A DNA stretch of 39,666 bases, from contig JBFMAG010000028.1 of assembly GCA_040755895.1 (NCBI GenBank), positions 1-39,666 of the forward strand, in the 5' to 3' direction. The notes beneath the pieces are model-generated. The model saw only the letters and a program-made list of their open reading frames with translations. It searched no databases and had not been told where the DNA came from. Shown here in pieces: positions 227-34,260 of this stretch. The stretch comes from Actinomycetota bacterium (GTDB taxonomy: Bacteria > Actinomycetota > Aquicultoria > Subteraquimicrobiales > Subteraquimicrobiaceae). A program made the translations under genes and the position numbers. The first letter of the stretch is position 1. Every line of letters starts with the position of its first letter.

Positions 227-316
227 TGAGGGGAAAATCGACATTAATGGATGGCGCTAGCCTCCTGGGAACCGAAGGTTCGTCACAAATAACCCGAGAG
301 TTGGGAGGCGATGTCG

Positions 317-589
317 ATGCATATACCAGATGGATTCTTAGAGGCAAAGACTTGGGTTTCAACGGCGGTAGTTTCCGCAGGGGCTTTGGGATACGCCGTT
401 AAGAAGGCCAATGAGAAACTGGGCGAAAAACAAGTCCCACTCATGGGCGTTGCGGCTGCATTCATCTTCGCTGCTCAGATGTTAAATTTTCCCGTAGTCG
501 GTGGAATATCGGGTCACTTTCATCCTCAAACGATCCTTGGTTATCGTTCCATTCGTTCTGATGATTGCCATCTTCATCCCTTTCTTTAA
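317..589 (+). pseudogene. cbiM: cbiM remnant (metal-binding N-terminus of the Co/Ni ECF S-component), truncated after about 65 codons
   Basis: SD GGGAGG lies 7 nt before ATG 317. The N-terminus is [39 protein letters not shown], typical of CbiM. After SGH the frame runs into unrelated residues and stops at 589. cbiQ-like sequence starts in another frame at about 500, and no cbiN is present. Confidence 0.6.
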
Positions 590-1096
590 ACCCGGTGAGG
601 TGGCAGGGGGATATAGTTTCGGCTCCTTTCGCTTGACCCTCACCTATAGTGGACTCGTAATTTTCTGGAACGTCCTCATCAAATCTTGGCTCTCAGTATT
701 GAGCATGATCATCCTCTCATCCACAACCAAATTTCCCGATCTCCTTAAGGATTGGAAAAACTCAAAATACCGAAGGTCATGATATTAATCCTGTCATTTA
801 TGTATCGCTATATTTTTGTCCTTGTCGATGAGGTCATGCGCATGAAACGAGCTCGGGATTCTCGAAATTTTGGAGGCCATAAGACTTGGCAGATCAAAAC
901 CATAGGCAACATGATTGGTACCCTTTTTATGCGCACCTATGAACGTGCGGAGCGGGTGTACGTGGCCATGGTTTCCCGAGGTTTCAGCGGGGAAATAAAA
1001 ACCTTGGATAATCTACACTTAACTGTAAGGGATTTTTGTTTCCTCTCTTTGATTATTTTGTATTTGATCTTTATTCGAGTATGGATGGTTCCATGA
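498..1096 (+). pseudogene. cbiQ: cbiQ (ECF T-component), 5'-truncated and frameshifted
   Basis: Two overlapping frames carry the gene: 501-782 (..TKFPDLLKD) and 749-1096 (GLEKLKIPKVMILILSFMYRYIFVLVDEVMRMKRARDSRNF..). Together they give a normal CbiQ. The frames overlap only in 749-779, so a single-nt indel there (aagga where aaggga would restore the frame) splits the gene. Confidence 0.6.
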
Positions 1097-1755
1097 AAAT
1101 AATAGAAATCGCCAATCTTAAGTTCACCTATCCCGATGGGACGGTGGCATTGAAGGGAATCAACCTGGATATCGAAGAAGGGGAATCGGTGGCCATACTC
1201 GGTCCCAATGGATCTGGAAAATCAACGCTCCTTCTTCAATTGAATGGTATCTTAAGGGGGGAAGGTACCATCAGGATTCGGGGTCTTTCCTTGGAAGAAA
1301 AAAATCTGAGGCGGATTCGGAGTCTGGTGGGGGTGGTCTTCCAAGATCCCGATGATCAGCTCTTTTCCCCAACGGTCTTCGATGATGTTGCCTTTGGTCC
1401 CATAAATATGGGCTTATCCCAGGAAGAAGTGAGAAAGAAAGTAAAAGAGGCTCTCGAAGAAGTGGAACTCACTGGTTTTGGAGATTGCTCAGCTCATCAC
1501 CTAAGCTTTGGAGAGAGAAAAAAGGTTTCCATCGCCACCATTCTGTCCATGAACCCCGAGATTTTGGCCCTCGATGAACCCACAAGCAATCTCGAACCCA
1601 GGGCAAGGAGACACGTCATAGATTTGCTCAAGGGATTAAAGGAAACCAAGATCGTCGCCACCCATGATATGAATCTTGCCTGGGAACTTTGTGAGCGAGC
1701 CATGTTACTTAACGATGGAAAGATTGTGGCCGATGGACAAGGGAGAAAATATTGA
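1093..1755 (+). CDS. cbiO: CbiO/EcfA-type ABC ATPase; C-terminal about 25 residues displaced into another frame (1713-1823)
   Basis: Walker A GPNGSGKST, signature LSFGERKKV and Walker B ILALDEP are present. The ATG overlaps the cbiQ stop (ATGA at 1093-1096). The expected C-terminus TREKILTNESLLVKHGLELPSL.. is encoded in the next frame up to TAA 1821-1823. Confidence 0.8.
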   Translation: MKIIEIANLKFTYPDGTVALKGINLDIEEGESVAILGPNGSGKSTLLLQLNGILRGEGTIRIRGLSLEEKNLRRIRSLVGVVFQDPDDQLFSPTVFDDVAFGPINMGLSQEEVRKKVKEALEEVELTGFGDCSAHHLSFGERKKVSIATILSMNPEILALDEPTSNLEPRARRHVIDLLKGLKETKIVATHDMNLAWELCERAMLLNDGKIVADGQGRKY

Positions 1756-1967
1756 CCAACGAGTCCCTCCTAGTCAAACATGGCTTAGAACTGCCCTCTC
1801 TTTCCACGGCTTCAAAACGCTAATTCGAGGCATCCATCAATGCACATTCCCAGATATCTTCTTATGAGCGAGGTTCAGAATTTCACATAAGGTATGAGGA
1901 TAAAAGAAATTTTGCTCAACTTATTTTCAAAGAGCAGTAACGCTAAAGAATTGATACTTCTTTCTCC

Positions 1968-2402
1968 TTACTTCCGAGCGAAAATAACCTTAGCTGGGAC
2001 CAAAATAGCAATGGCAAACAATGCCGTCCCAACGCTGCCCAGGACCAGGGGCCCAGTTTTTCCAACCATAATACTGGTAGCTAAAACTCCACCCCAGCCA
2101 AAGATGCCAGCTATTAAAAGAGTGAGCCAAGCCCATCTTTCTCCTTTCCGATAACCAGCTAAGACCACCCCAATAATCAGGGTTGCAATGCAAAGAGCCA
2201 AACATCCAATCTCTCTGTGATCTGCTCTATACAAATCCGCTAGCCTTGGGTTGGCACTAGCAAAGTCACTCCAGGTCTGGCCAGTATAGCTTTCAAATCC
2301 GGCGGTAGGCATAACGATGTCCATTAATATCCCACCTAACAATATCCAGATTGCCATAATCAGAGCTGCAATCCAACCTACAGTGATGAGTTTGCTTTCC
2401 AT
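1968..2402 (-). CDS. Small integral membrane protein (about 4 TM helices), unknown family; possibly the terminal cassette
   Basis: 144-aa ORF with SD GAGGAGGA upstream of ATG 2402 and hydrophobic segments throughout. It starts 47 nt from attC-like site 1. Confidence 0.6.
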   Translation of the reverse strand: MESKLITVGWIAALIMAIWILLGGILMDIVMPTAGFESYTGQTWSDFASANPRLADLYRADHREIGCLALCIATLIIGVVLAGYRKGERWAWLTLLIAGIFGWGGVLATSIMVGKTGPLVLGSVGTALFAIAILVPAKVIFARK

Positions 2403-2443
2403 TTTTATCCTCCTCTTTCATAATTTGTCGGGTGAGCAATTTC

Positions 2444-2535
2444 ATATAACGTTTCGAGCGTATCCGAAGTTCCGAGCGATGCGAGGAATTTGGGCGAAGT
2501 GCCAAAGGCACGAAGCCAGATACGCTCTGTTATAC
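2444..2535. repeat. attC-like site 1
   Basis: ATATAAC-gtttc-GAGCGTATC-cGAAGT-hairpin-ATTTGGGCGAAG-hairpin(tgccaaaggca)-cgaagcca-GATACGCTC-t-GTTATAC. Confidence 0.65.
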
Positions 2536-2548
2536 GATGGGCTGGCAA

Positions 2549-3391
2549 TCATATTTCACCTCGTATCTTTAGGAATTCTTCTATCAACTCTTTAATCACA
2601 ATTGATTTATAAACTATTCCTAAATCTACCATTTGAGTGGTGGCTATCACTGGAACTTTCCCCGTTGGAATGTCAATAAGTTCGATAGTATTAAAGTCCT
2701 TTCTTATAAATACAGAGGCTACAACTCCCAAAAAGAAAATACGACTACCTACTACCAGGCCTTTGCCTTTGGGAGAATAACTGCCTATGTTACAAAGAAA
2801 AACAGGACTTCCACTTGACCCTGGAAAAATTGAGGCGTCAATTAGGAATGTGGGTTTTCCTTCAAAATCTACCGAAATAGGTGTTGCGGTTATCCCTCTC
2901 CTAACAACAGGTAATAAATTCCTTCTATCAAAAATATTGCTGGGGTAACCAACGAATATAATATCTTCAACAGCGTCAATATCTTCACTTAATGATTTAT
3001 CCGAAGGAATTAACTCTGGAGTTACTGATTTAAAAAATATTTGAACGCCTTTCTGATGTAATTCGTTTAGGACTGGTGCAAAAGGCATAATGGCAACATC
3101 TATATCTTCTTGAGGATGTGCTATCCATTGTTTTTCAAAATTAGGATATTCAATCGTAAAAACTTTGCCCAAAATCGGCTTTTCACCATCACTTTGGTTA
3201 AATGCCAATTTCCCTCTGGTGGAGTCTTTAATAACATGCTTATTTGTAACCACAAATAAGTAGTGCTTATCGTCTTTTGCATAATCAAAAATAAACCCAG
3301 TACCTATGCTTATTGAGGCATCAGGAAGACTCGACTCAATTCTTACCGTTGTAAACAGTATATTCTCAAATATAGATTTGACTTCAATCAT
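2549..3391 (-). CDS. Cytoplasmic trypsin-fold (S1/Trypsin_2-like) serine protease, cassette-borne
   Basis: 280 aa with no signal peptide. Triad contexts are TNKHV (His), DIDVAIM (Asp) and PGSSGSPVF (Ser). SD GAGGAGGA lies before ATG 3391. The stop is 13 nt from site 1. Confidence 0.8.
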   Translation of the reverse strand: MIEVKSIFENILFTTVRIESSLPDASISIGTGFIFDYAKDDKHYLFVVTNKHVIKDSTRGKLAFNQSDGEKPILGKVFTIEYPNFEKQWIAHPQEDIDVAIMPFAPVLNELHQKGVQIFFKSVTPELIPSDKSLSEDIDAVEDIIFVGYPSNIFDRRNLLPVVRRGITATPISVDFEGKPTFLIDASIFPGSSGSPVFLCNIGSYSPKGKGLVVGSRIFFLGVVASVFIRKDFNTIELIDIPTGKVPVIATTQMVDLGIVYKSIVIKELIEEFLKIRGEI

Positions 3392-3423
3392 TGCACTTCT
3401 CCTCCTCTATTTGCCAGCCTTTC

Positions 3424-3501
3424 GTATAACGTTTTTGGTTGCCGAAGTCGCCGTAGGCGATTTGGACGAAGCGCAGCGAAGTCGGCAACCCCGTGTTAGG
3501 C
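3424..3501. repeat. attC-like site 2
   Basis: GTATAAC-gttttt-GGTTGCCGA-AGT-hairpin(cgccgtaggcg)-ATTTGGACGAAG-hairpin(cgcagcg)-aag-TCGGCAACC-ccgt-GTTAGGC. Confidence 0.65.
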
Positions 3502-3546
3502 GCCGTATGACGCAGGTGCCTTCTTAGCAATCGCCTTTATCTTCCT

Positions 3547-3696
3547 CCGGTGGAACTATTGGTCTACCCAGCCAATCCCTTTCGATCTTTTGCTTGCCCA
3601 ACCAGTCCCTTTCTATTTTGGGCCTGCCTAACCAGTCTGTCTCTACTTTGTCTCTCCCTAGCCAATCCTTATCAGGAACCCATCTACCAAGCCAAT
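3547..3696. repeat. Degenerate 30-bp tandem repeat, 5 units
   Basis: Units start at 3547, 3577, 3607, 3637 and 3667. Each ends in ..cc(a/t)a(g/a)cca(a/g)t (for example cccagccaat, cccaaccagt, cctaaccagt, cctagccaat, ccaagccaat). Confidence 0.75.
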
Positions 3697-3789
3697 CTTG
3701 GCGTACGTCTTGCCATCTTGCTTAATGATTCTCTCTCCAGTTTTCTTATCATACTTCTTGCCATCCTTCTCAATGTAATCCTCGCTCAT
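3658..3789 (-). CDS. 43-aa Lys/Gly-rich peptide, probably the surviving 5' part of a longer GW-repeat ORF cut by amber codons
   Basis: SD GGAGGT lies 6 nt before ATG 3787-3789. The product is MSEDYIEKDGKKYDKKTGERIIKQDGKTYAKIGLVDGFLIRIG*. The same frame continues through five TAG codons only, to a TAA inside the core of site 2. Confidence 0.4.
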   Translation of the reverse strand: MSEDYIEKDGKKYDKKTGERIIKQDGKTYAKIGLVDGFLIRIG

Positions 3790-3832
3790 TTTTGACCTCC
3801 TTCTCTTAGTTTTAGGCTCTGAGTAATATGGC

Positions 3833-3913
3833 GCCTAACGGTCCCGGTGTTTGCGAAGTGCCCCGAAGGGGGCATTTGGGTGAGCGTAGCGAACCGCAAA
3901 CACTGTGTTAAGT
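3833..3913. repeat. attC-like site 3
   Basis: GCCTAAC-ggtcccg-GTGTTTGCG-AAGT-hairpin(gccccgaaggggc)-ATTTGGGTGAGCGTAGCGAAC-CGCAAACAC-tgt-GTTAAGT. Confidence 0.65.
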
Positions 3914-3977
3914 GAGTGCGTTAGCACCGAGCCAAACGAAGTCGGCAAAGAGTTGCCCGAAGCCCTTTTGGGTATCC

Positions 3978-4256
3978 TCAGAGAACTTTTTTCACTTCCA
4001 CTACTGGATCTGCTGGTGGAGACCCCAATACTTTCTCTACAATCTTTTTAACTGTCTCCACTGGATTCTCTACCTCCTCTGGAACTTCCCAATCACAGAT
4101 TCCCATTCCCTTTTCGTCCACATAAGTATCCACTCTAATCCCAGGGGGATAGTTCTTCAATTCTTCTAAAAAACCATCCCGAACCTTCTTGAGTTCTTCC
4201 GCACTGAGCTTGGGAAGCCTATTCTTCTCGTAATGGAATAGTATTACCTTGGGCAT
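3978..4256 (-). CDS. 92-aa protein resembling the DUF4242 / SCO4226-like ferredoxin-fold family (weak)
   Basis: MPK..LSAEEL..YVDEKGMGICDWEVPEE matches, from memory, the pattern of DUF4242 proteins. SD AAGGGGGG lies before ATG 4256. Confidence 0.55.
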   Translation of the reverse strand: MPKVILFHYEKNRLPKLSAEELKKVRDGFLEELKNYPPGIRVDTYVDEKGMGICDWEVPEEVENPVETVKKIVEKVLGSPPADPVVEVKKVL

Positions 4257-4331
4257 GTTACCCCCCTTTCTTAATCCAATCTACTATTATTTGGTTGGCT
4301 GTTACTCCCCATTTGGGCTTCGGGCAATTTC

Positions 4332-4413
4332 ACTTAACGTTTCCAGCATATACGAAGTTCCGCCGAAGGCGGAATTTGGGCGAACGAAGTGAGCCGTATA
4401 TGCTGTGTTGTCC
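4332..4413. repeat. attC-like site 4
   Basis: ACTTAAC-gtttc-CAGCATATAC-GAAGT-hairpin(tccgccgaaggcgga)-ATTTGGGCGAACGAAGTGAGCC-GTATATGCTG-t-GTTGTCC. Confidence 0.65.
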
Positions 4414-4426
4414 GAAGTTGCAGAAG

Positions 4427-5167
4427 TTATTCTTTAAATTTTCTTGCTACATCCTTCAAGCTTAAAACTTCAATAGGACAATTCTTCCAATCGTGCTCCC
4501 AGCATATTATTAGATCACACTGCAATGGATCATGACCATGAGTATTGAAGTCGCTTGATCTATACTCGAATTCTGCTTTGCAGCTTATCCATCTGCCTTT
4601 AATGTTCTTTTTTCTCAGAAGAGCATCGGGGAATTTACCCCTTATTCCTTCTATCCTAAAATCTAATTCGTATGCCAAAGCTGCGAACAACAAAATCACT
4701 CCTTGTTCATTTATAGGTTCGTATACAATGCTTCGGACACCCAGAATATCGCCGGTTTCATGTAGCTGGATTTCTTCCATTTTTCTGAAAGCTTCTTCTG
4801 GTTCCTCTTCTTTCTCTTCGATTTCAGGTTCAACACCATGTAGCTTCGCTAAACCTTCATCTTGATCCTTGCCCGTCTTTTGAAAAATTCGCACTCTTTC
4901 CCTGCCACTTTGGGTTATTTTCCATATCCCTCTTTCCGACGCATCAAGTTGACCCTTTCGCTTTAAGTATTCTCGTGCCCATTGAAGCCTATTGATCCAA
5001 ATAATTTGCCCTCTTTTATATTTTCCATATTCTTCTGGATGTTCAAGAAGTTCCTGTTTCATTATTTCTTCAACTATAGGATAAACATCAGAAGTCTTGG
5101 CCGAGCCGCCTAATTTAATTAATGCTTGCAGCAATGGTATTTCGTAATCAGTAAATGATAATGGCAT
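4427..5167 (-). CDS. Winged-helix (Mrr_N-like) N-terminal domain, acidic linker and a C-terminal nuclease-like domain; cassette-borne
   Basis: The N-terminus YEIPLLQALIKLGGSAKTSDVYPIVEEIM..IWINRLQWAREYLKRKGQL..RGIWKITQSG resembles the Mrr N-terminal wHTH. The C-terminus ..GKFPDALL..ISCKAEFEYRSSDFNTHGHD..CDLIICWEHDW has a restriction-endonuclease-like look; its fold is unverified. SD AAGGAGGA precedes the start. The stop is 13 nt from site 4. Confidence 0.6.
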   Translation of the reverse strand: MPLSFTDYEIPLLQALIKLGGSAKTSDVYPIVEEIMKQELLEHPEEYGKYKRGQIIWINRLQWAREYLKRKGQLDASERGIWKITQSGRERVRIFQKTGKDQDEGLAKLHGVEPEIEEKEEEPEEAFRKMEEIQLHETGDILGVRSIVYEPINEQGVILLFAALAYELDFRIEGIRGKFPDALLRKKNIKGRWISCKAEFEYRSSDFNTHGHDPLQCDLIICWEHDWKNCPIEVLSLKDVARKFKE

Positions 5168-5196
5168 AGTTTTTATTCCTCCTTAATTGCAATTTC

Positions 5197-5242
5197 GGAC
5201 AACTACAGAATAAGTGAATTTCGTTTAATTTTCACGTTGACA
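5197..5242. repeat. Possible short or degenerate fifth attC-like site (or attI-side junction)
   Basis: GGACAAC-tacagaataa-GTGAA-tttcgtttaatt-TTCAC-GTTGACA. Its left end TTCGGACAAC is the exact reverse complement of the right end of site 4. The internal conserved core is absent. Confidence 0.3.
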
Positions 5243-5270
5243 ATATATATTAATCTTGCGCACGGCGCAA
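5242..5270 (-). promoter_or_regulatory. Candidate sigma70-type promoter reading into the cassette array
   Basis: On the minus strand: TTGCGC (5270-5265), 17 nt, then TATATT (5247-5242). Purely motif-based. Confidence 0.25.
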
Positions 5271-5528
5271 TCCGCTTTCTCTTCGTTGAAGTGCTGAATC
5301 AAAAATGGTGCACGTATCACGGAAAAACCTATCGAGGATAACAAGTCCCCTTGATGCAATCTTTGAGAAATAGCAAAAGCCACCCCATAATCCATGTAAA
5401 TTAAAACTTTCCTCCAATACAGCTAGTAGTCTTCTCCAGAAATTTCCAAGCACACTTGGAATGAAGAAAAAAGTGATTTAGAATAGTGCTAATTAACATG
5501 TGGGAAAATCCACCGGAAGTTGAGGAAG

Positions 5529-7886
5529 ATGCCGAAGAGCAGATTTCACGTCGTAGTTAAGGGAGTAGTTCAGGGGGTGGGCTTTAGACCTTTCATCTAT
5601 CAGCTTGCTCACTCGCATGAGTTAACCGGATGGGTTCTCAATTCTTCTAAAGGAGTGATCATAGAGGTAGAAGGCAAAAAGAAGGATTTGGAAGCCTTCG
5701 TCGAGGATATTGAGACCAAAGCTCCGCCCCTGGCCAGGATAGAAAGCATCGATGTGCAATCTCTTCCCCCCACGGGTTACTCTTCCTTCATCATCAAACA
5801 CAGCGTAGAGGAGCAAGAGCAATTCTTGTTGATCTCTCCGGATATCTGCATCTGCGATGATTGCCTGCGGGAATTGTTCGATCCAAATGATAGACGATAC
5901 CGATATCCCTTCATCAACTGCACAAATTGTGGTCCACGCTTTACCATCATCGAAGACATTCCCTATGACAGACCAAAGACCACCATGAAGAAATTCAAGA
6001 TGTGCCCCAAGTGCCAGGCGGAATACGATGATCCCACAAACAGGCGTTTTCACGCTCAACCGAATGCTTGTCCCAAGTGTGGACCCTCTCTTCAACTAGT
6101 GGTGAGTCGGGGGTCGGGGGTCGGGAGTGTGATTCGATGTGAGGATCCCATTACGGAGACCATCAAACTGCTGAAAGAGGGAAAGATCGTAGCCATAAAG
6201 GGGCTGGGCGGATTTCATCTGGCGTGCGATGCGGAGAACGACAAAGCCGTGGAAACCTTGAGAGTTAGAAAGAGGAGACCCGGCAAGCCACTCGCCATCA
6301 TGCTCCACGATGTGGAACAAATCAGAAAACACTGTTTGGTCTCAGAGGATGAGGAGAAGATACTCAAAAGTCCCCAGAGACCGATCGTGCTTCTCCTCAA
6401 GAAACCCGATACCTCCATCTCCCCCTTAGTGGCTCCCAATAATAACTACCTGGGGGTAATGCTTCCTTACACGCCGCTTCACTACATCCTGCTCAAGGAA
6501 TCAGGTATGGCACTCATCATGACCAGCGGGAACATAAGTGAAGAGCCCATTGCCATGGAGAATGAGGAAGCTCTGAGGAGGTTAGGGCATATCGCCGATT
6601 ATTTCCTGATGCATAACCGAGACATTTATTCGAGATACGATGACTCGGTGGTGCGGGTGATCGATGGTGAATTGATCATGATTCGGAGGGCGAGGAGTTT
6701 TGCCCCCTTTCCCATCCACCTACCCTTTAAAACCAAGGAAATTTTAGCCTGCGGACCAGAGCTTAAGAACACCTTCTGCCTGACACATGAAAATTACGCT
6801 TTCGTCAGTCAGCACATTGGGGACATGGAAAACCTGGAGACCTTCGAACATTTTGAAACCACCCTTGAACTTTACAAGAGACTTTTCAGGATCGATCCTA
6901 AGATAGTCGTCTACGACCTTCACCCCGAGTATCTCTCAACGAAATATGCTTTATCCCTAAAGGACGTAAAATTGGTGGGGGTTCAACACCACCATGCCCA
7001 CATAGTTAGCTGCATGGTAGAAAATAAAGTGAAAGATAAAGTCATTGGGATATCCTTTGATGGTTTGGGATACGGGACCGACGGCACAATCTGGGGAGGA
7101 GAAATCCTCATCGCCGATTGGAAGGAGTTTGAGCGAGTTGGTCACTTGAGATACGTCCCCATGCCCGGTGGAGTGGCTGCCATCGAAAAACCATACAGAA
7201 TGGCCTTTGGCTTCTTGTATTCATTCTTCGGTGAAGATTATAGGAATTTTAAGATTGACTTCTTAAAATTCCTCGATGAGACCGAGGTAAACATAATGAA
7301 GAGGCAAATCGATAAAAAGATTAATTCTCCCCTTACCTCCAGTTGCGGCAGATTATTCGATGCGGTTTCTTCTCTAACGAGGATCAGGGATGAAATCGAT
7401 TATGAAGGGCAAGCCGCAGTGGAACTGGAGATGATAGCGGATCCCAGCATTGAAGAAAGCTACCCCTTTGAAATCCAGACTAGGGACGAGGGACGAGGGA
7501 CGAGTATCGACTATCGACTGGTTATTGACACCAAACCAATTATCGAAGGTGTGATCAAGGACTTGGAAAATGGAGTTCCCGTGCCCCTGATAGCAGCGAA
7601 GTTCCACAACACCGTGATGGAATTCGTCTTGGATATTTGTAAGCGGATAAGAGAGCGAGAAGGTCTGAATAAAGTGGTTTTGAGTGGTGGGGTTTTTCAG
7701 AACGTTTATCTCCTAACCAATCTACCCAGAAGGCTTAAAGGGGAAGGATTTGAGGTCTTTATACAGAAAAAAGTTCCAGCTAATGATGGAGGGATATCAT
7801 TGGGACAAGTGGTGGTGGCAAACGAAATCTGCAAGGATGAAAATTTAATCCAAGGAATAGGGGAGAAAGATGTCACGGAAGGGTAA
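5529..7886 (+). CDS. hypF: [NiFe]-hydrogenase maturation carbamoyltransferase HypF
   Basis: Acylphosphatase-like VQGVGFRPF, two CxxC..CxxC zinc-finger pairs, YrdC-like KGLGGFHLACDA and a Kae1-like C-terminal half are all present. The ORF opens at TTG 5520; ATG 5529 is preferred. Confidence 0.93.
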   Translation: MPKSRFHVVVKGVVQGVGFRPFIYQLAHSHELTGWVLNSSKGVIIEVEGKKKDLEAFVEDIETKAPPLARIESIDVQSLPPTGYSSFIIKHSVEEQEQFLLISPDICICDDCLRELFDPNDRRYRYPFINCTNCGPRFTIIEDIPYDRPKTTMKKFKMCPKCQAEYDDPTNRRFHAQPNACPKCGPSLQLVVSRGSGVGSVIRCEDPITETIKLLKEGKIVAIKGLGGFHLACDAENDKAVETLRVRKRRPGKPLAIMLHDVEQIRKHCLVSEDEEKILKSPQRPIVLLLKKPDTSISPLVAPNNNYLGVMLPYTPLHYILLKESGMALIMTSGNISEEPIAMENEEALRRLGHIADYFLMHNRDIYSRYDDSVVRVIDGELIMIRRARSFAPFPIHLPFKTKEILACGPELKNTFCLTHENYAFVSQHIGDMENLETFEHFETTLELYKRLFRIDPKIVVYDLHPEYLSTKYALSLKDVKLVGVQHHHAHIVSCMVENKVKDKVIGISFDGLGYGTDGTIWGGEILIADWKEFERVGHLRYVPMPGGVAAIEKPYRMAFGFLYSFFGEDYRNFKIDFLKFLDETEVNIMKRQIDKKINSPLTSSCGRLFDAVSSLTRIRDEIDYEGQAAVELEMIADPSIEESYPFEIQTRDEGRGTSIDYRLVIDTKPIIEGVIKDLENGVPVPLIAAKFHNTVMEFVLDICKRIREREGLNKVVLSGGVFQNVYLLTNLPRRLKGEGFEVFIQKKVPANDGGISLGQVVVANEICKDENLIQGIGEKDVTEG

Positions 7887-9930
7887 AAGCTCCCAACCCA
7901 TTATATATGTCAGAACCTCAAAAGATGAAATTGAAAAGTGGGACGGGAAAAAGATCGTTGAAGCTCTGATCAGAGAAACTGACATCGAGCAAAACTTGGC
8001 CGAAAAGATAAGCCAGGAAGTGGAGGAGCAAATCATCTCCTCGAAGCTTACCACCGTTACCGCTTCTCTCATCCGAGAGCTCGTGGACACCAAATTGGTC
8101 GAGTATGGTCTCGAAGAAGCTAGGAGAAAACACGCTCGCCTAGGTGTGCCCCTCTATGATACAGAACAAGCCATCTTATACCCCAGCAAGGAAAATGCCA
8201 ACATCCCTCACAACCCCGAGGCATCAAATCTAGTCCTCGCAGAACAGATTAAGAAGCAGTTTGCCCTGGCAAAAGTCTTCTCCCAGGATGTTGCCGATGC
8301 TCATATGCGCGGAGATATTCATCTCCACGATCTAGGATATCCAGACAGACCATATTGTTCGGGGCAAAATTTGGAATACGTCAAGAAATTTGGGTTGAAA
8401 TTGCCATTCTGGGCCACCGCTAAGCCCGCCAGACACCCTGAGGTCCTTCTTGAACAGATGATAAAGATGTCCGCAGCCCTCCAGGGACATTTCGCTGGAG
8501 CCATCGGTTGGGATGCGGTGAATCTATTCTTCGCTCCTTATCTTGTGGGTTTAAGCAATAAAGAAATCCATCAACTGGCTCAGATGATGATATTCGAGCT
8601 CTCTCAGCAATCAGTGGCTCGTGGAGGGCAGACGATTTTTAGCGATCTCAACTTGTACTGGGAAGTTCCGAGGCATTTTGAGGACGTTCCCGCCATCGGG
8701 CCGGGTGGAGAATATACCGGGAAGACCTACCGAGATTACCTAAAAGAGGCACAAAAATTCATCTGGGCTCTCTTCGATGTATACAAAGAGGGAGATGCCG
8801 AAGGTAAGCCATTCTTCTTTCCCAAACCCTTGCTCCACATCACTTCAAAGTTCTTTGAGACCCCAGGACATGAAAGGTTCCTCAACCATATTTCGGAGGT
8901 GGCTAGCCTTAAGGGTAATACCTACTTCGTTTTCGACCGCGGCGATACTTACCGCATAAATGAATGTTGTAGATTGGCTTTCGAGCTCGATTCAGCCGAT
9001 TTGGCCGAGGCAAAGCAACCCTGGAAGATGAGATATTCCGCCCTGCAAAATGTATCCATCAATCTGCCGCGAGTGGCTTATCTGAGCAAGGGAAAGGAGG
9101 AAGAGCTCTTCGATAAAATTACACAACTCATGGAGCTCGCCGCCAAAGCTCATCTTCAAAAGAGAACTTTTCTCGAAAAGCTCCTAAAAATGGGCGAAAA
9201 GGGACCGCTGGCACTATTGGCCATCGAGCTCGATGGAGAACCCTATCTCCGCATGCATCGAGCCACACATCTTTTCGGCATCGTTGGATTAAATGAGCTC
9301 GTGCAGGCGCATACGGGTAAGGAACTTCATGAAAGCGAGGAGGCTCTTAAATTTGGGCTGAAGATTATCTCCCATATGAAACTCACGGCTAATAAACTAT
9401 CAAAAAAGCACGGTCTGCGCTTCGTTTTGGAGCAGACACCCGCGGAGCACGTGGCTTACAGATTTGCCACGCTGGACATGAAACACTTCCCAAAGGAAGC
9501 TTCTCGGGTCGTTAAAGGAAATATAGATTTTGGTGAAATTTACTATACCAATTCCACATACCTCAATGTGGGAGCTCCAATCGACCCCATAGAGCGCGTG
9601 ACCATTGAAGGGATGTTCCATCCCTTAATTGAAGCGGGTTGGCTCTCTCATATATGGTTGGGAGAGGCTCAACCTCCTCCGGAGTCCATCGCCAATTTCG
9701 TTACAAAGGTATTCAAAAATACTCATAACTCTCAGATAGCTTTCTCGCCCGAATTCACCTCCTGCCTTAATTGTGGAAAAATCACTCGAGGGCTCCTCGA
9801 CAGCTGCGCTCACTGTGGCTCTAAGAATATAGAGGGGATAACCCGGATCACAGGGTATTTTTCCAGAACAACCCGCTGGAATAAGGGAAAACTTGGTGAA
9901 CTCAAGGATAGACATAGGGTGACTTTATAG
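7870..9930 (+). CDS. nrdD: Anaerobic (class III) ribonucleoside-triphosphate reductase
   Basis: ATP-cone N-terminus, C-terminal zinc ribbon CLNCG..CAHCG and glycyl-radical motif TRITGYFSR..WNKGK. SD GGGGAG precedes the start. It overlaps the hypF end by 17 nt. Confidence 0.9.
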   Translation: MSRKGKSSQPIIYVRTSKDEIEKWDGKKIVEALIRETDIEQNLAEKISQEVEEQIISSKLTTVTASLIRELVDTKLVEYGLEEARRKHARLGVPLYDTEQAILYPSKENANIPHNPEASNLVLAEQIKKQFALAKVFSQDVADAHMRGDIHLHDLGYPDRPYCSGQNLEYVKKFGLKLPFWATAKPARHPEVLLEQMIKMSAALQGHFAGAIGWDAVNLFFAPYLVGLSNKEIHQLAQMMIFELSQQSVARGGQTIFSDLNLYWEVPRHFEDVPAIGPGGEYTGKTYRDYLKEAQKFIWALFDVYKEGDAEGKPFFFPKPLLHITSKFFETPGHERFLNHISEVASLKGNTYFVFDRGDTYRINECCRLAFELDSADLAEAKQPWKMRYSALQNVSINLPRVAYLSKGKEEELFDKITQLMELAAKAHLQKRTFLEKLLKMGEKGPLALLAIELDGEPYLRMHRATHLFGIVGLNELVQAHTGKELHESEEALKFGLKIISHMKLTANKLSKKHGLRFVLEQTPAEHVAYRFATLDMKHFPKEASRVVKGNIDFGEIYYTNSTYLNVGAPIDPIERVTIEGMFHPLIEAGWLSHIWLGEAQPPPESIANFVTKVFKNTHNSQIAFSPEFTSCLNCGKITRGLLDSCAHCGSKNIEGITRITGYFSRTTRWNKGKLGELKDRHRVTL

Positions 9931-9942
9931 GAGGAAACAGGG

Positions 9943-10641
9943 TTGAGATTGCAAAACCTCGTCGTAGAAGCGATCAAAACACCTTCCCTGCTTGCTTTCG
10001 GAGCCGTCTTTATCGCCGGAATAATTGTCAGTCTGGGCTCATGTGCCATAATGGAATTACCTATCCTAATTGGATATATAGGTGGGATGGGCTATTCCTC
10101 GAGAAGAAGGATATTTGCCATTACCTTACTCTTTGTTCTGGGGATGCTCACCACCTATTTAATTATAGGAATCGTCGTTGGGATGGCCAGCATGACCTTA
10201 AGCAAAATAGCTACCTTGAGTACAATTCTTTATTTAGCTATGGGAGCGGTCTCTCTCATTCTGGGACTTTACATGCTTGGCTTCATCCACCCACCCATAC
10301 CCAACCTTTCTTTGCAAAAACCTCCAAGGAGGCTGGGACTTTTGGGAGCTTATCTTCTAGGTTTGGGGTTTATCTTTTTCGAAGCACCGACCTGTCCCGC
10401 ATGCGCTCCCGCACTCATGTTAATAAGCAGTTATATGGTGACCGCTGGGAAAATCCTTTGGAGTCTCTTCCTACTTCTAACATACGTGCTTGGTCAAAGC
10501 GTGCCCATCTTGATTGCGGGAACTTTAACAGGTGTCATAAAACCCTTAACCGAGAGAGCCCATTCCTGGAAGGAATATTTTCAAATCGTTAGCAGTATTT
10601 TACTGATTCTAGTAAGTTTGGATTTATTTTGGTTGGCCTAG
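9943..10641 (+). CDS. CcdA/DsbD-family thiol:disulfide transmembrane electron-transfer protein
   Basis: Polytopic membrane protein with Cys in TM1 (SLGSCAIMELP) and a CPAC motif in TM4. SD GGAGGA lies 7 nt before TTG 9943. Confidence 0.7.
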   Translation: MRLQNLVVEAIKTPSLLAFGAVFIAGIIVSLGSCAIMELPILIGYIGGMGYSSRRRIFAITLLFVLGMLTTYLIIGIVVGMASMTLSKIATLSTILYLAMGAVSLILGLYMLGFIHPPIPNLSLQKPPRRLGLLGAYLLGLGFIFFEAPTCPACAPALMLISSYMVTAGKILWSLFLLLTYVLGQSVPILIAGTLTGVIKPLTERAHSWKEYFQIVSSILLILVSLDLFWLA

Positions 10642-10683
10642 CTTTAGAGTTAGGAGTTGGAAGTCCGGGTGTGAAAAATTCAA

Positions 10684-11268
10684 ATGGAACACAAGCACAA
10701 CAATACCGCATATAGGAGAGTCTCAAAGCGCGATAGGGTAATTATGACCTTGCTCACCATAGGGTTGGCAATTGTAGCATTGAGACCATTCGTTGCCTTC
10801 CAAAGTTTTAATCGTGCCTACTCCTTCTCTGAGAATCAAATGTACAATAAAGCAATTACCCATTATAGAAGGGCAATCCTTTTGGATCCAAAATTTAGCA
10901 CAGCCCATAGTTATCTGGCGTATTGTTACAACAAAACAGAGCAAATCGAACAAGCCATTGCCTCTTACCAACGGGCAATAGAACTCAACCCAAAGGATAA
11001 ACAAGCCCACTTGGAACTGGGTTTAATCCACTATAACCAAAAAGAGTATACCAAAGCCATAATCCATCTTGACCAAGTAGCCAAGATTGATCCACAAGAT
11101 GTCTCCACCAGAGTCTTGCTTGCTGAATGTCACGAAAGAATCGGCCAAAAGGAGAAGGCATATTCCGTTTGGAAGGAAATATTGACCATCACCCCCATTA
11201 TGATCCCGCCAAGAGGGCCTTGGAAAGACTTAAAAGATAGGAGAATGGGAAGAATTAGAAAAGAGTAG
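10684..11268 (+). CDS. Membrane-anchored TPR-repeat protein
   Basis: One N-terminal TM segment is followed by 3-4 TPR units (AITHYRRAILLDPKF.., AIASYQRAIELNPKD..). Confidence 0.75.
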   Translation: MEHKHNNTAYRRVSKRDRVIMTLLTIGLAIVALRPFVAFQSFNRAYSFSENQMYNKAITHYRRAILLDPKFSTAHSYLAYCYNKTEQIEQAIASYQRAIELNPKDKQAHLELGLIHYNQKEYTKAIIHLDQVAKIDPQDVSTRVLLAECHERIGQKEKAYSVWKEILTITPIMIPPRGPWKDLKDRRMGRIRKE

Positions 11269-32901: not shown

Positions 32902-34260
32902 TCATTCAATTTGGCATCTCTTCAGCAAGTTATTCCAATCTTCGTCAACCTTAGCTTGAAATTCCTCCATGACGTGCCGATTCTCTGGTTTAAATAAATG
33001 TTTGAATCTGCCTTGGGGTTTGAGCCATTCCACGAGAGGTTTCTTCTCCTTAGGTTTATGCGTCAACCTCCAGTTGCCATTTTCTACTTCATAGAGTGGC
33101 CAGAAGCAGGTTTCCACGGCGAGTCTAGCCATCCTTATCGTTTGATTCGTGGGATATCGCCAGCCTCGAGGGCAGGGAGCCAAGATATTCAAAAAAGCGG
33201 GTCCTTCGGCATTGAAAGCCTTCTCAGCCTTGGTGACTAAATCCCGCCAGTGACTGGGGGAAGCCTGCGCCACATAGGGAATGTTGTGTGCGGCTACACA
33301 GGCCGTCAGATCCTTCCGGTTCTGCGTCTTGCCCGGTATCACCTTGCCCACAGGAGAAGTTGTCGTCCATGCTCCCAAGGGTGTGGCACTTGAGCGCTGT
33401 ATACCCGTATTGTGGACTACAATTCCGTCAGCAATGAAATTATGCTCGTCCTCTACTCTTAAATCTAAAGTAGGCTCACATCCTGCTAATCTTATATTTT
33501 TTATTTTTTCAGTGTCAAAATATTTATTTTCTAAATTTTTTAAAACGACGACTTCATCTCCGACCTTGATTTCTGCCAATGTTTTCCAGACAAAGCTATC
33601 TCTTCTACCTCTACCATTTCTTTTTAAAACTAAAAAAGGATGATTTGCGGTTGCTTTTATTGAATGGTGTAAGGTTTCAACTCCATAAACCTCTCTTATT
33701 CCGTTATCAAATACACCAGTGCATCTTCTCAAAACTAACTGATGAGTCTTTTGGTCGAAGGCATATATTTTATCTCCCTCTTTTACCTCGGTTATTTTCT
33801 TAAGCCCATTTTCAGTCATTATTAAACAAGAGGTGCTCAGACAATTCATATACGCTTGATTGTCATAGCAGACATAGACCATTCGGTGTCCTCTTTCAAA
33901 AACTCCGGAGAGGGCTTGGAGACCGATGTCATAGGTGCCACCATCTCCACCGAAAGCAACGAATCTTATATCTCTTCTATCCATTTTCCCCCTCCTCATC
34001 AGGACCCTATAAGCCGACTCCACACCACTTAAAGTCGCGGCGGCGTTCTCGAATGCATTGTGGATATAGGGAACTTCCCAGGCGGTTGAGGGATAGATCG
34101 TCGTGGAAACTTCAAGGCAACCCGTGGGACAGCAGACGACCACGGGTTTGTCGGTGGCCATAAGGACCTGCCTGACGATGATCGTGGCTCCACAGCCAGC
34201 GCAAAGCCTATGTCCAGAGGTAAATCTCTCCTCCCTAAAGGACAATTCCTTGATGCTCAT
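32902..34260 (-). CDS. porB: 2-oxoacid:ferredoxin oxidoreductase beta (TPP-binding) subunit, interrupted by a mini-intein
   Basis: CAGCG.., GGDGGTYDIG..YDNQAYMN and TGIQRSSATP..TTSP extein motifs. Length is 452 aa, against about 307 aa once the insert is removed. Substrate (pyruvate versus other 2-oxoacids) is not determinable. Confidence 0.88.
   Translation of the reverse strand: MSIKELSFREERFTSGHRLCAGCGATIIVRQVLMATDKPVVVCCPTGCLEVSTTIYPSTAWEVPYIHNAFENAAATLSGVESAYRVLMRRGKMDRRDIRFVAFGGDGGTYDIGLQALSGVFERGHRMVYVCYDNQAYMNCLSTSCLIMTENGLKKITEVKEGDKIYAFDQKTHQLVLRRCTGVFDNGIREVYGVETLHHSIKATANHPFLVLKRNGRGRRDSFVWKTLAEIKVGDEVVVLKNLENKYFDTEKIKNIRLAGCEPTLDLRVEDEHNFIADGIVVHNTGIQRSSATPLGAWTTTSPVGKVIPGKTQNRKDLTACVAAHNIPYVAQASPSHWRDLVTKAEKAFNAEGPAFLNILAPCPRGWRYPTNQTIRMARLAVETCFWPLYEVENGNWRLTHKPKEKKPLVEWLKPQGRFKHLFKPENRHVMEEFQAKVDEDWNNLLKRCQIE
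33409..33843 (-). mobile_element. Class 1 mini-intein (145 aa, no homing endonuclease domain) in porB
   Basis: It starts at Cys140 (CLSTSCLIMTENG, block A). Block B is TANHPFL, block F is LDLRVEDEHNFIA and block G is DGIVVHN. The +1 Thr of TGIQRS follows. The coding DNA is visibly more AT-rich than the flanking extein DNA. Confidence 0.85.

Follow-up and report, generated by a model that had tools for sequence, protein, structure and literature searches.

We analysed a window consisting of the whole 39,666-nt contig JBFMAG010000028.1, from a metagenome-assembled genome (MAG) of an Actinomycetota bacterium (GCA_040755895.1). Between cbiO and hypF, this contig carries an array of minus-strand gene cassettes separated by four structured recombination sites, next to an attI-like site and the remains of a tyrosine recombinase gene (Table 1). 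The four sites, which are 87–101 bp long and less than 1 kb apart, share one architecture with covarying stems. They were aligned on the minus strand, that of the open reading frames (ORFs), as alignment A1. Read in this direction, each begins with an outer box, TTCGnnTAAC, followed by 1–4 nt, an arm of 9–12 nt and a loop containing TTCG(C/T)CCAAAT; a hairpin of 5–7 bp, the motif ACTTCG, the complementary arm and approximately 5 nt ending in AAC then lead to the opposite outer box, GTTAnnCGAA. The stem has no bulges, the loop motif TTCGCCCAAAT is conserved, and the two spacers are unequal in a fixed manner (1 nt versus 5 nt). The sites lie where an initial annotation, made from the sequence alone, had placed them, and their outer boxes fit, as it proposed, the R''/R' consensus RYYYAAC/GTTRRRY.

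A covariance model built from the four window sites (R1) scored them at 82–104 bits, with E-values from 1e-18 to 1e-23, and the next best match anywhere in the 39.7-kb window reached 9.6 bits. The pattern CCAAAT..ACTTCG..AACGTT was matched three times in the window versus none in 100 shuffles. RNAalifold recovered compensatory changes in 10 out of 20 pairs across the four sites, in line with the covarying arms described initially, and single-stranded DNA folds of the sites gave z-scores of −1.6 to −3.3. A scan of the window at the Rfam gathering thresholds returned no match. All four copies are confined to the variable interval, and none was detected by R1 behind the approximately 30 core genes of the contig.

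The implied crossover points yield units of 865, 499, 409 and 979 bp; the initial annotation had given the same first three lengths and 980 bp for the fourth, and the complementary half-sites bracketing the units read as it claimed. Each unit contains a single minus-strand ORF preceded by a ribosome-binding site of the GGAGG type, also as described, except that the ORF of unit 3 proves to be frameshifted. Two of the stop codons do lie 13 nt from the 7-nt box of the site. No minus-strand promoter-like site was found within the array, whose five minus-strand units (four cassettes and a terminal unit) each have their own ribosome-binding site. The protein of cassette 1 combines a Pfam Mrr_N domain (E=9e-15) with a nuclease-like C-terminus and weakly matches a type IV restriction enzyme in PADLOC. 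In cassette 3, the frame changes after a head of 43 amino acids (aa), and the tail contains five DWLGR-containing repeats approximately 8–11 aa apart and stops 19 nt before site 2. The trypsin-like protease of cassette 4 gives a full-length match (321 bits) to the PADLOC defence candidate PDC-S45. To judge from these matches, the cargo represented by the PDC-S45 and Mrr_N proteins looks defensive. The terminal unit has neither an R1 match nor a CATATAAC partner to its left; a GTTATATG partner was also sought, and none was in the right place. For NrdD, the Mrr_N protein and aspartate kinase, look-ups of the exact protein returned no record; the remaining look-ups retrieved only two short Logan contigs from one run, both of which break at the sites.

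The orthologous locus of a close relative, a JGI contig (L193; 3300032204 Ga0326299_1000010) whose HypF is 92% identical to that of the window, lies in the same neighbourhood (cbiQ-cbiO ... hypF-nrdD-hypCDE), with flanks sharing 91–94% DNA identity with those of the window. A comparison of the cbiO–hypF interval with a relative, as the initial annotation had suggested, revealed complete cassette turnover between these conserved flanks. The L193 interval encodes, all on the minus strand, a 147-aa protein, a DUF2283/DUF4258 pair and proteins of 229 aa (zf_Tbcl), 436 aa and 117 aa; no cassette protein is common to the two intervals. R1 found three sites in L193, on the same strand as in the window. 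On the hypF side, window 5201–5251 corresponds to L193 6874–6924 at 94% identity, and the two sequences diverge exactly past the G of G|TT (CTGTAG|TTGTCCGAAAT in the window, CTGTAG|TTAAGTGAAAT in L193), so that homology ends at AAC|, the attI junction, which is the crossover point that had been proposed for cassette insertion. Between its array and hypF, L193 has a plus-strand gene (6990–7826) for a tyrosine recombinase of 278 aa, which is intact. Such a pattern, in which the integrase–attI region and the flank are conserved while all cassettes are exchanged at one fixed crossover, typifies chromosomal platforms of the integron type.

The window retains two fragments of this recombinase gene. 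Since window 5253–5309 and 5310–5373 correspond to L193 7186–7242 and 7763–7826, respectively, the gene has lost two segments, equivalent to L193 6925–7185 and 7243–7762. The first of these held the start codon and a promoter-like TTGACA-16-TAGAAT, directed into the array in L193 and agreeing with the consensus at 11 out of 12 positions (a consensus match only). A profile of 120 members of the recombinase family matched the window at 5290–5370 on the plus strand (E=0.0012), the only match among 1,757 translated segments. The initial statement that the window has no tyrosine recombinase, thus, stands for intact genes and fails for this pseudogene, which sits 50 bp from the array. An integrase pseudogene next to a conserved attI indicates a complete but decayed platform, instead of the distal part of an array, as the initial annotation had considered, or a cluster of two or more attC sites less than 4 kb apart and lacking an integron integrase in the vicinity (CALIN), its other suggestion, formed at a secondary site. 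The inverted orientation of the recombinase remnant was examined as a possible anomaly and set aside, as L193 shows that the divergent layout is native. A weak Pfam match to HKR_ArcB_TM in the ORF at 5225–5395 is spurious, because this ORF crosses the pseudogene.

Insertion sequence (IS) activity and relics of sites are also apparent at the two loci. An IS110-family element occupies positions 3508–4866 of the L193 array (transposase gene at 3585–4604), at an attC-like site with flanks TATGAAAAGG / CCTTTTCATA, and recalls the IS1111-attC elements that target integron sites. A degenerate extra half-site (CTTCGGGCAAC plus a short hairpin) lies between the ORF stop and the functional site at window 3934–3977 (cassette 2) and at L193 6381–6440; it may be either the fossil of an earlier site or a fused cassette.

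Table 1. Features of the cassette array and its borders in the window. L193 positions refer to the orthologous locus of the close relative
Feature	Position	Strand	Description
Conserved chromosomal flank after cbiO	1756–1847		Window 519–1847 = L193 346–1676, 94%; homology ends at 1847
IS110-flank remnant, 42 bp	1918–1959		95% identical to L193 4766–4807, 3' of the IS110 transposase gene
Terminal unit	1968–2450	−	Starts TTATATGAAAT; ORF 1968–2402, 144 aa, predicted membrane protein
Site 1	2440–2540	−	R1 87.2 bits; plus-strand DNA fold z = −3.3
Cassette 4 (979 bp)	2451–3429	−	ORF 2549–3391, 280 aa; Pfam Trypsin_2
Site 2	3420–3506	−	R1 82.5 bits
Cassette 3 (409 bp)	3430–3838	−	Frameshifted ORF 3524–3789
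Site 3	3829–3917	−	R1 84.9 bits; 83% identical to L193 4881–4944
Cassette 2 (499 bp)	3839–4337	−	ORF 3978–4256, 92 aa, no family match; then site
Site 4 (recombination site of cassette 1)	4328–4418	−	R1 104.4 bits; DNA fold z = −3.2
Cassette 1 (865 bp)	4338–5202	−	ORF 4427–5167, 246 aa, then site; bracket TTGTCCGAA / TTCGGACAA
attI-like site	5203–5251	−	Conserved with L193 up to crossover G5203|T5202; minus strand ...AAACGAAATTCACTTATTCTGTAG|TT
Recombinase pseudogene, internal fragment	5253–5309	+	Approximately codons 66–84 (LAHSAIRFLFVEVLNQKW); 95% identical to L193 7186–7242
Recombinase pseudogene, 3' fragment	5310–5373	+	Last 20 codons (HVSRKNLSRITSPLDAIFEK) and stop codon; 91% identical to L193 from 7763

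The same sites occur well beyond this lineage. A stricter form of the site pattern was found in 108 stretches of GTDB species genomes, versus approximately eight estimated by chance. R1 searches of the corresponding 8-kb blocks retrieved approximately 160 sites, often several per block and on one strand, with many arranged in arrays. The records carry the labels of many phyla, including WOR-3, Aminicenantes, Chloroflexota, Spirochaetota, Ignavibacteria, Patescibacteria, Methanophagales, Thermoplasmata, Bathyarchaeia and Heimdallarchaeota. Among 127 aligned family members, 91% of the cells are paired, compared with 68% in shuffles and 25–37% when partners are slid, and double changes are seen in 18 out of 20 pairs; this alignment was fitted to the model and, hence, leans towards structure. 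The half-site brackets of the window are not peculiar to it: 40 adjacent site pairs in other loci have on average 5.6 out of 7 complementary outer bases versus 3.5 for random pairs. Sites of the R1 type were also detected in contigs classified as viral in IMG/VR (three sites at L199 4831–5613, and others at L198 293–1223 and L196 592–685), with no recombinase of the family nearby.

The recombinase family follows the sites. Copies or 5'-truncated remnants adjoin the arrays in nine GTDB loci and in every case precede the sites in the same orientation. Conversely, when 80 metagenome loci were fetched using the recombinase protein alone, 31 out of 31 R1 matches lay on the recombinase strand, nearly all of them downstream. 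In the GTDB loci, most array-adjacent recombinase genes are 5'-truncated or frameshifted and keep their 3' end and attI (L006, L026, L044, L050, L092, L101 and L063). Hence, loss of the enzyme with the array kept seems to be common in the family. The family is large: the best 120 database clusters are 72–94% identical and come from Nitrospirota, WOR-3, Stahlbacteria, Acidobacteriota and others; the ambiguous label that PGAP gives to the family is 'site-specific tyrosine recombinase/integron integrase'. Directly 3' of the recombinase stop codon lies a conserved region of approximately 85 bp, with two short palindromes and the end ..ACGAG|TTAnnCGAAAT. In the loci that have an attI of this co-oriented type plus a downstream site (21 in total), the attI-proximal TTnnnnnnn is complementary to the R'' of the first site at 7 out of 7 positions in 12 loci and at 6 out of 7 in four. 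Overall, the site family, the recombinase family and attI co-occur in more than 100 MAGs and metagenome contigs with labels of many bacterial and archaeal phyla, and this combination, with its typical exchange of cassettes at G|TT, is seen again in hundreds of contigs from the environment. A profile of the attI of co-oriented loci did not match the window even at E≤1000. This mismatch prompted us to consider insertion at a secondary (attG-like) site, which is ruled out by the lineage-specific attI conserved in L193.

In several respects, the platform behaves as an integron. The attI stands beside the integrase, insertion occurs at G|TT (a conserved 49-bp block followed by differing first cassettes), and the cassettes are co-oriented, carry single ORFs, mostly lack promoters and vary in content. 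The recombinase, in contrast, departs from IntI. Residues 208–254 of IntI1 (the reference sequence used is 100% identical to annotated IntI1) and residues 175–239 of VchIntIA have no counterpart in the intact L193 orthologue and the L079 family, which contain only approximately 4–23 aa there; thus, the IntI-specific additional domain (the I2 helix and patch III region) is absent from the family. Against the VchIntIA structure 2A3V, the L193 protein aligned in two stretches with approximately 42 residues skipped, whereas the match with XerA (4A8E) was a single whole-length stretch with a similar score (147 bits). The spacing of the catalytic motifs is 65–68 aa in 112 out of 120 homologues versus 106 in IntI1. 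The recombinases of L193 and L079 scored 215–236 bits with the IntI model TIGR02249, under its cut-off of 265, and 243–245 bits with NF040815, over its cut-off of 220; the XerC and XerD models gave 199–204 bits versus 236 for TIGR02249. As a control, the bona fide IntI of L195, a 433-kb contig from a more distant Actinomycetota relative (HypF 74% identical), scored 487 bits with TIGR02249. This IntI and, downstream of it, two co-oriented attCs of canonical type lie at L195 2815–5178, approximately 5 kb from hypF.

The sites also depart from canonical attCs, so the initial reading of integron-style cassettes stands for the cassettes and not for the attC assignment, which is provisionally negative as judged with a proxy model (R2). 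R2 was built from attC-aadA7 and seven archaeal attCs of Ghaly et al., with a R''-AAnTC-L'' layout including bulges. It found three out of five attCs on plasmids R46 and pFBAOT6 (39–63 bits) and the two sites beside the L195 IntI (62.6 and 27.2 bits). By contrast, it gave no match at the four window sites (E≤10, filters off), overlapped none of the approximately 160 R1 sites and had no match in the 80 recombinase-fetched loci; R1, in turn, found none of the class 1 attCs. The R boxes are present in the R1 family, the stem is free of bulges, and the 1-nt and 5-nt spacers occur in approximately 90% of 101 sites (R''-side spacer of 1 nt in 94, R'-side spacer of 5 nt in 90). The distribution of enzymes and sites is consistent with a pairing in which IntI with the insertion serves bulged attCs and the insertion-less enzyme serves bulge-free sites. 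From a structural viewpoint, such a pairing is reasonable, since extrahelical bases are docked by the insertion (MacDonald 2006, summarised in PMC7790495).

Among known systems, the closest likeness is to sedentary chromosomal integrons and to their decayed forms, CALIN that retain an intI pseudogene (Cury et al. 2016, PMC4889954); a recombinase, an attI and promoterless co-oriented single-ORF cassettes are common to both, and the promoter-like region of L193 would correspond to their promoter region. Shared features also include the G|TT crossover, the RYYYAAC/GTTRRRY boxes, the full difference in cassettes between close relatives, toxin–antitoxin and defence cargo, and decay by integrase loss and IS activity. 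In contrast to these integrons, the recombinase of the window family lacks the IntI insertion, and its sites have neither extrahelical bases nor a 5–6 nt unpaired central spacer; they possess a loop motif, an inner hairpin and sequence conservation across phyla, and are missed by the proxy attC model. Integrons with an inverted integrase (Treponema, other Spirochaetota and some archaea; PMC9668308) resemble most loci of the family in having attI just 3' of the recombinase and co-oriented cassettes, but their IntI is bona fide, having the additional domain, and their attCs are canonical; the window lineage also has a divergent layout. The nine archaeal attCs in PMC9668308 are all of the R''-AAnTC-L'' type with bulges. 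Xer recombinases, together with elements that make use of such enzymes (archaeal XerA, the single-stranded attP hairpin of CTX phage and Acinetobacter pdif modules), share the length and architecture of the recombinase, whose similarity to XerA is approximately equal to that with VchIntIA. They also share a duplex-like hairpin substrate with an unpaired centre, and gene modules bounded by recombinase sites. Unlike Xer, the recombinase of the window family is a dedicated enzyme that is encoded in cis, has an attI to itself, serves ordered unidirectional arrays and has an N-terminal domain nearer to IntI; its sites are structured palindromes of 80–100 bp rather than dif-like sequences of 28 bp.

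We found no prior description of the triad of this site, its attI and an insertion-less recombinase in the searchable literature, outside of which most subscription journals lie. The 'Cand' Xer-related and 'integron-like' subgroups of Smyshlyaev et al. 2021 (PMC8138268), together with NCBIfam NF040815, are probably the same proteins as the window family. In that paper, 'Cand' denotes Xer-related recombinases of candidate phyla, and the IntI insertion is described as 'not fully conserved' in the integron-like subgroup; the text consulted ties no cassette arrays, attI or attC-like sites to either group. Among complete genomes, those of Actinobacteria were reported to lack complete integrons by Cury et al. 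2016 (PMC4889954). Ghaly et al. 2022 (PMC9668308) described archaeal integrons with canonical IntI and attC, and noted that IntI1 accepts very diverse attCs. The family motif and six archaeal contigs bearing R1 sites are absent from their supplement, which is uninformative because their MAG filtering could explain it. Escudero et al. 2020 (PMC7790495) treated the gain of the I2 helix as the key innovation, in keeping with the prevailing view that it made an Xer-like enzyme into an integrase using folded single-stranded attC, and named the 'lack of intermediates' as an obstacle to reconstructing the transition from Xer to IntI.

Considering this evidence, we find it likely that region 1848–5373 is a sedentary chromosomal integron-type gene-capture platform that has lost its engine, of a class distinct from canonical integrons. 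In its working form, as in L193, the recombinase gene would stand beside hypF and be transcribed away from a region of approximately 110 bp containing divergent promoter-like sites and attI. Circular cassettes, each with one ORF and one imperfect palindrome of approximately 90 bp, would enter at the G|TT of attI, and would be excised by recombination between neighbouring palindromes. Insertion of circular cassettes at G|TT would, therefore, place each one between TTCGnnTAAC and GTTAnnCGAA, two mutually complementary halves that derive from the R box of the cassette itself. The palindrome presumably acts by structure, with a stem of 9–12 bp that is free to vary provided that it pairs, and a loop presenting the unpaired conserved motif TTCGCCCAAAT and a small hairpin. 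Free variation of the stem with pairing kept, alongside constant unpaired features, suggests that the sites fold as single strands, and it also suggests which strand is exchanged. The recombinase is IntI-like without the I2/patch-III insertion, and the sites are devoid of the extrahelical bases read by such an insertion. Most of the recombinase gene and the putative promoter region have been lost from the window through two deletions, and an IS-associated event would have clipped the distal end of the array. Owing to the recombinase loss, the clipped end and the frameshift, the five units would be frozen unless a recombinase acts in trans.

Alternatively, the window could hold ordinary integron debris, a CALIN of divergent attCs served by a canonical IntI elsewhere in the genome, with the neighbouring recombinase being an Xer-like bystander. 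The fit of the R''/R' boxes to RYYYAAC/GTTRRRY, the canonical integron with a bona fide IntI in the related L195, the breadth of attCs accepted by IntI1 (PMC9668308) and the mixture of both site types in two loci (L035 and L092) all lend it some credit. We nevertheless regard this explanation as improbable, as the insertion-less recombinase stands at the attI of the orthologous locus and accompanies R1 sites, with its orientation fixed, across dozens of independent loci. Proxy-canonical sites are absent from those recombinase loci, and the R1 sites lack the bulged bases that IntI reads.

A second alternative keeps the platform and changes the chemistry: the sites would be used in an Xer-like manner, as double-stranded DNA or as a duplex-mimicking hairpin (cf. 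dif modules and the CTX-phage attP hairpin), and not as single strands with replicative resolution. A stem whose sequence is free and whose pairing is kept points to recognition of a folded form rather than of duplex sequence, and duplex DNA would leave no meaning to the constant internal loop of 1 × 5 nt or to the conserved unpaired motif. Hence, we give this possibility a similarly small chance, despite the Xer architecture with its whole-length XerA match (147 bits), the perfect duplex stems without extrahelical bases and the short palindromes of Xer-site type in attI. Ordinary Xer/dif resolution of chromosome dimers, with one housekeeping recombinase, a single 28-bp dif near the terminus and no cargo arrays, does not describe the locus, and the recombinase is dispensable, given that it is a pseudogene in the window. 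Finally, it is very hard to credit that the sites are genome-wide repetitive extragenic palindromic (REP), terminator or RNA-level palindromes without a role in recombination: they do lie close behind stop codons, and covariation alone cannot separate DNA from RNA pairing, but only four copies exist on the contig, all within the variable interval and not dispersed behind core genes, with complementary brackets, wholesale cassette replacement in L193, a link to recombinase and attI, and an empty Rfam scan.

Several observations weigh against the platform reading or limit it. The catalytic role of the L193-type recombinase is deduced from its position beside the sites and from the logic of the junctions. 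In the lineage of the window, the recombinase gene and the array are divergent, whereas every other locus examined has the recombinase upstream and co-oriented; there are, therefore, at least two layouts of the platform, with attIs that share no sequence homology. Neither in the window nor in L193 does the terminal unit possess a site. The description of the sites as non-canonical is a proxy result, as R2 rests on eight sequences and missed two out of five class 1 sites. The mixture of canonical-type and R1-type sites in L035 and L092 makes cross-use by a true IntI possible. Much of the taxonomic breadth relies on the MAG binning of short contigs and may be inflated. In the two mixed loci, which are MAG contigs, the R2-type and R1-type sites lie on one strand (L035 8–1959 and L092 482–6270), and in L092 the R2 sites are upstream of a remnant of the insertion-less recombinase.

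On a wider scale, we tentatively suggest, as a proposal that could well prove wrong, that the window belongs, in decayed form, to a large system that is a sister to integrons and has gone unrecognised, defined by IntI-like recombinases without I2, an attI of their own and hairpin sites with a conserved loop motif in place of extrahelical bases, and spread in uncultivated bacteria and archaea. It would represent either a proto-integron between Xer and IntI or a second, independent solution for the use of folded single-stranded sites. Cassettes of such a system probably move between bacteria and archaea. If this is true, many arrays filed as integrase-less have a cognate enzyme. Confirmation would provide a natural system for hairpin-site recombination without I2, with a direct bearing on the origin of integrons; it would extend the reach of cassette exchange to Actinomycetota, candidate phyla and archaea, and would mean that current integron surveys overlook a whole class. 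The candidate anti-phage protein PDC-S45 and the Mrr-like nuclease among the cargo fit the view of arrays as defence-gene banks.

The remainder of the contig encodes DnaX, LytTR and GGDEF regulators, HypDEF, NrdD and PorAB. The named relatives of the host are Candidatus Oleimmundimicrobium, Subteraquimicrobiales and Aquicultor, within the class Candidatus Aquicultoria. In agreement with the decay of the cbi operon noticed initially, several short ORFs stand in place of cbiQ in the window (311–1096), whereas the gene is intact in L193 (257 aa). PorB, the beta subunit of pyruvate:ferredoxin oxidoreductase (window 32902–34260, minus strand, 452 aa), contains an intein, with a C-terminal splicing motif over the cut-off and residues 140–246 similar to DnaB/GyrA inteins. 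The NrdD of L193 (10415–13549, 1,044 aa) has two intein insertions and that of the window (7870–9930, 686 aa) has none; the blastn alignment breaks at window 8630/8632 and 8965/8968. Between nrdD and hypD, the window encodes a DsbD-like membrane protein and a TPR protein (9943–11268), where L193 has hypC instead.

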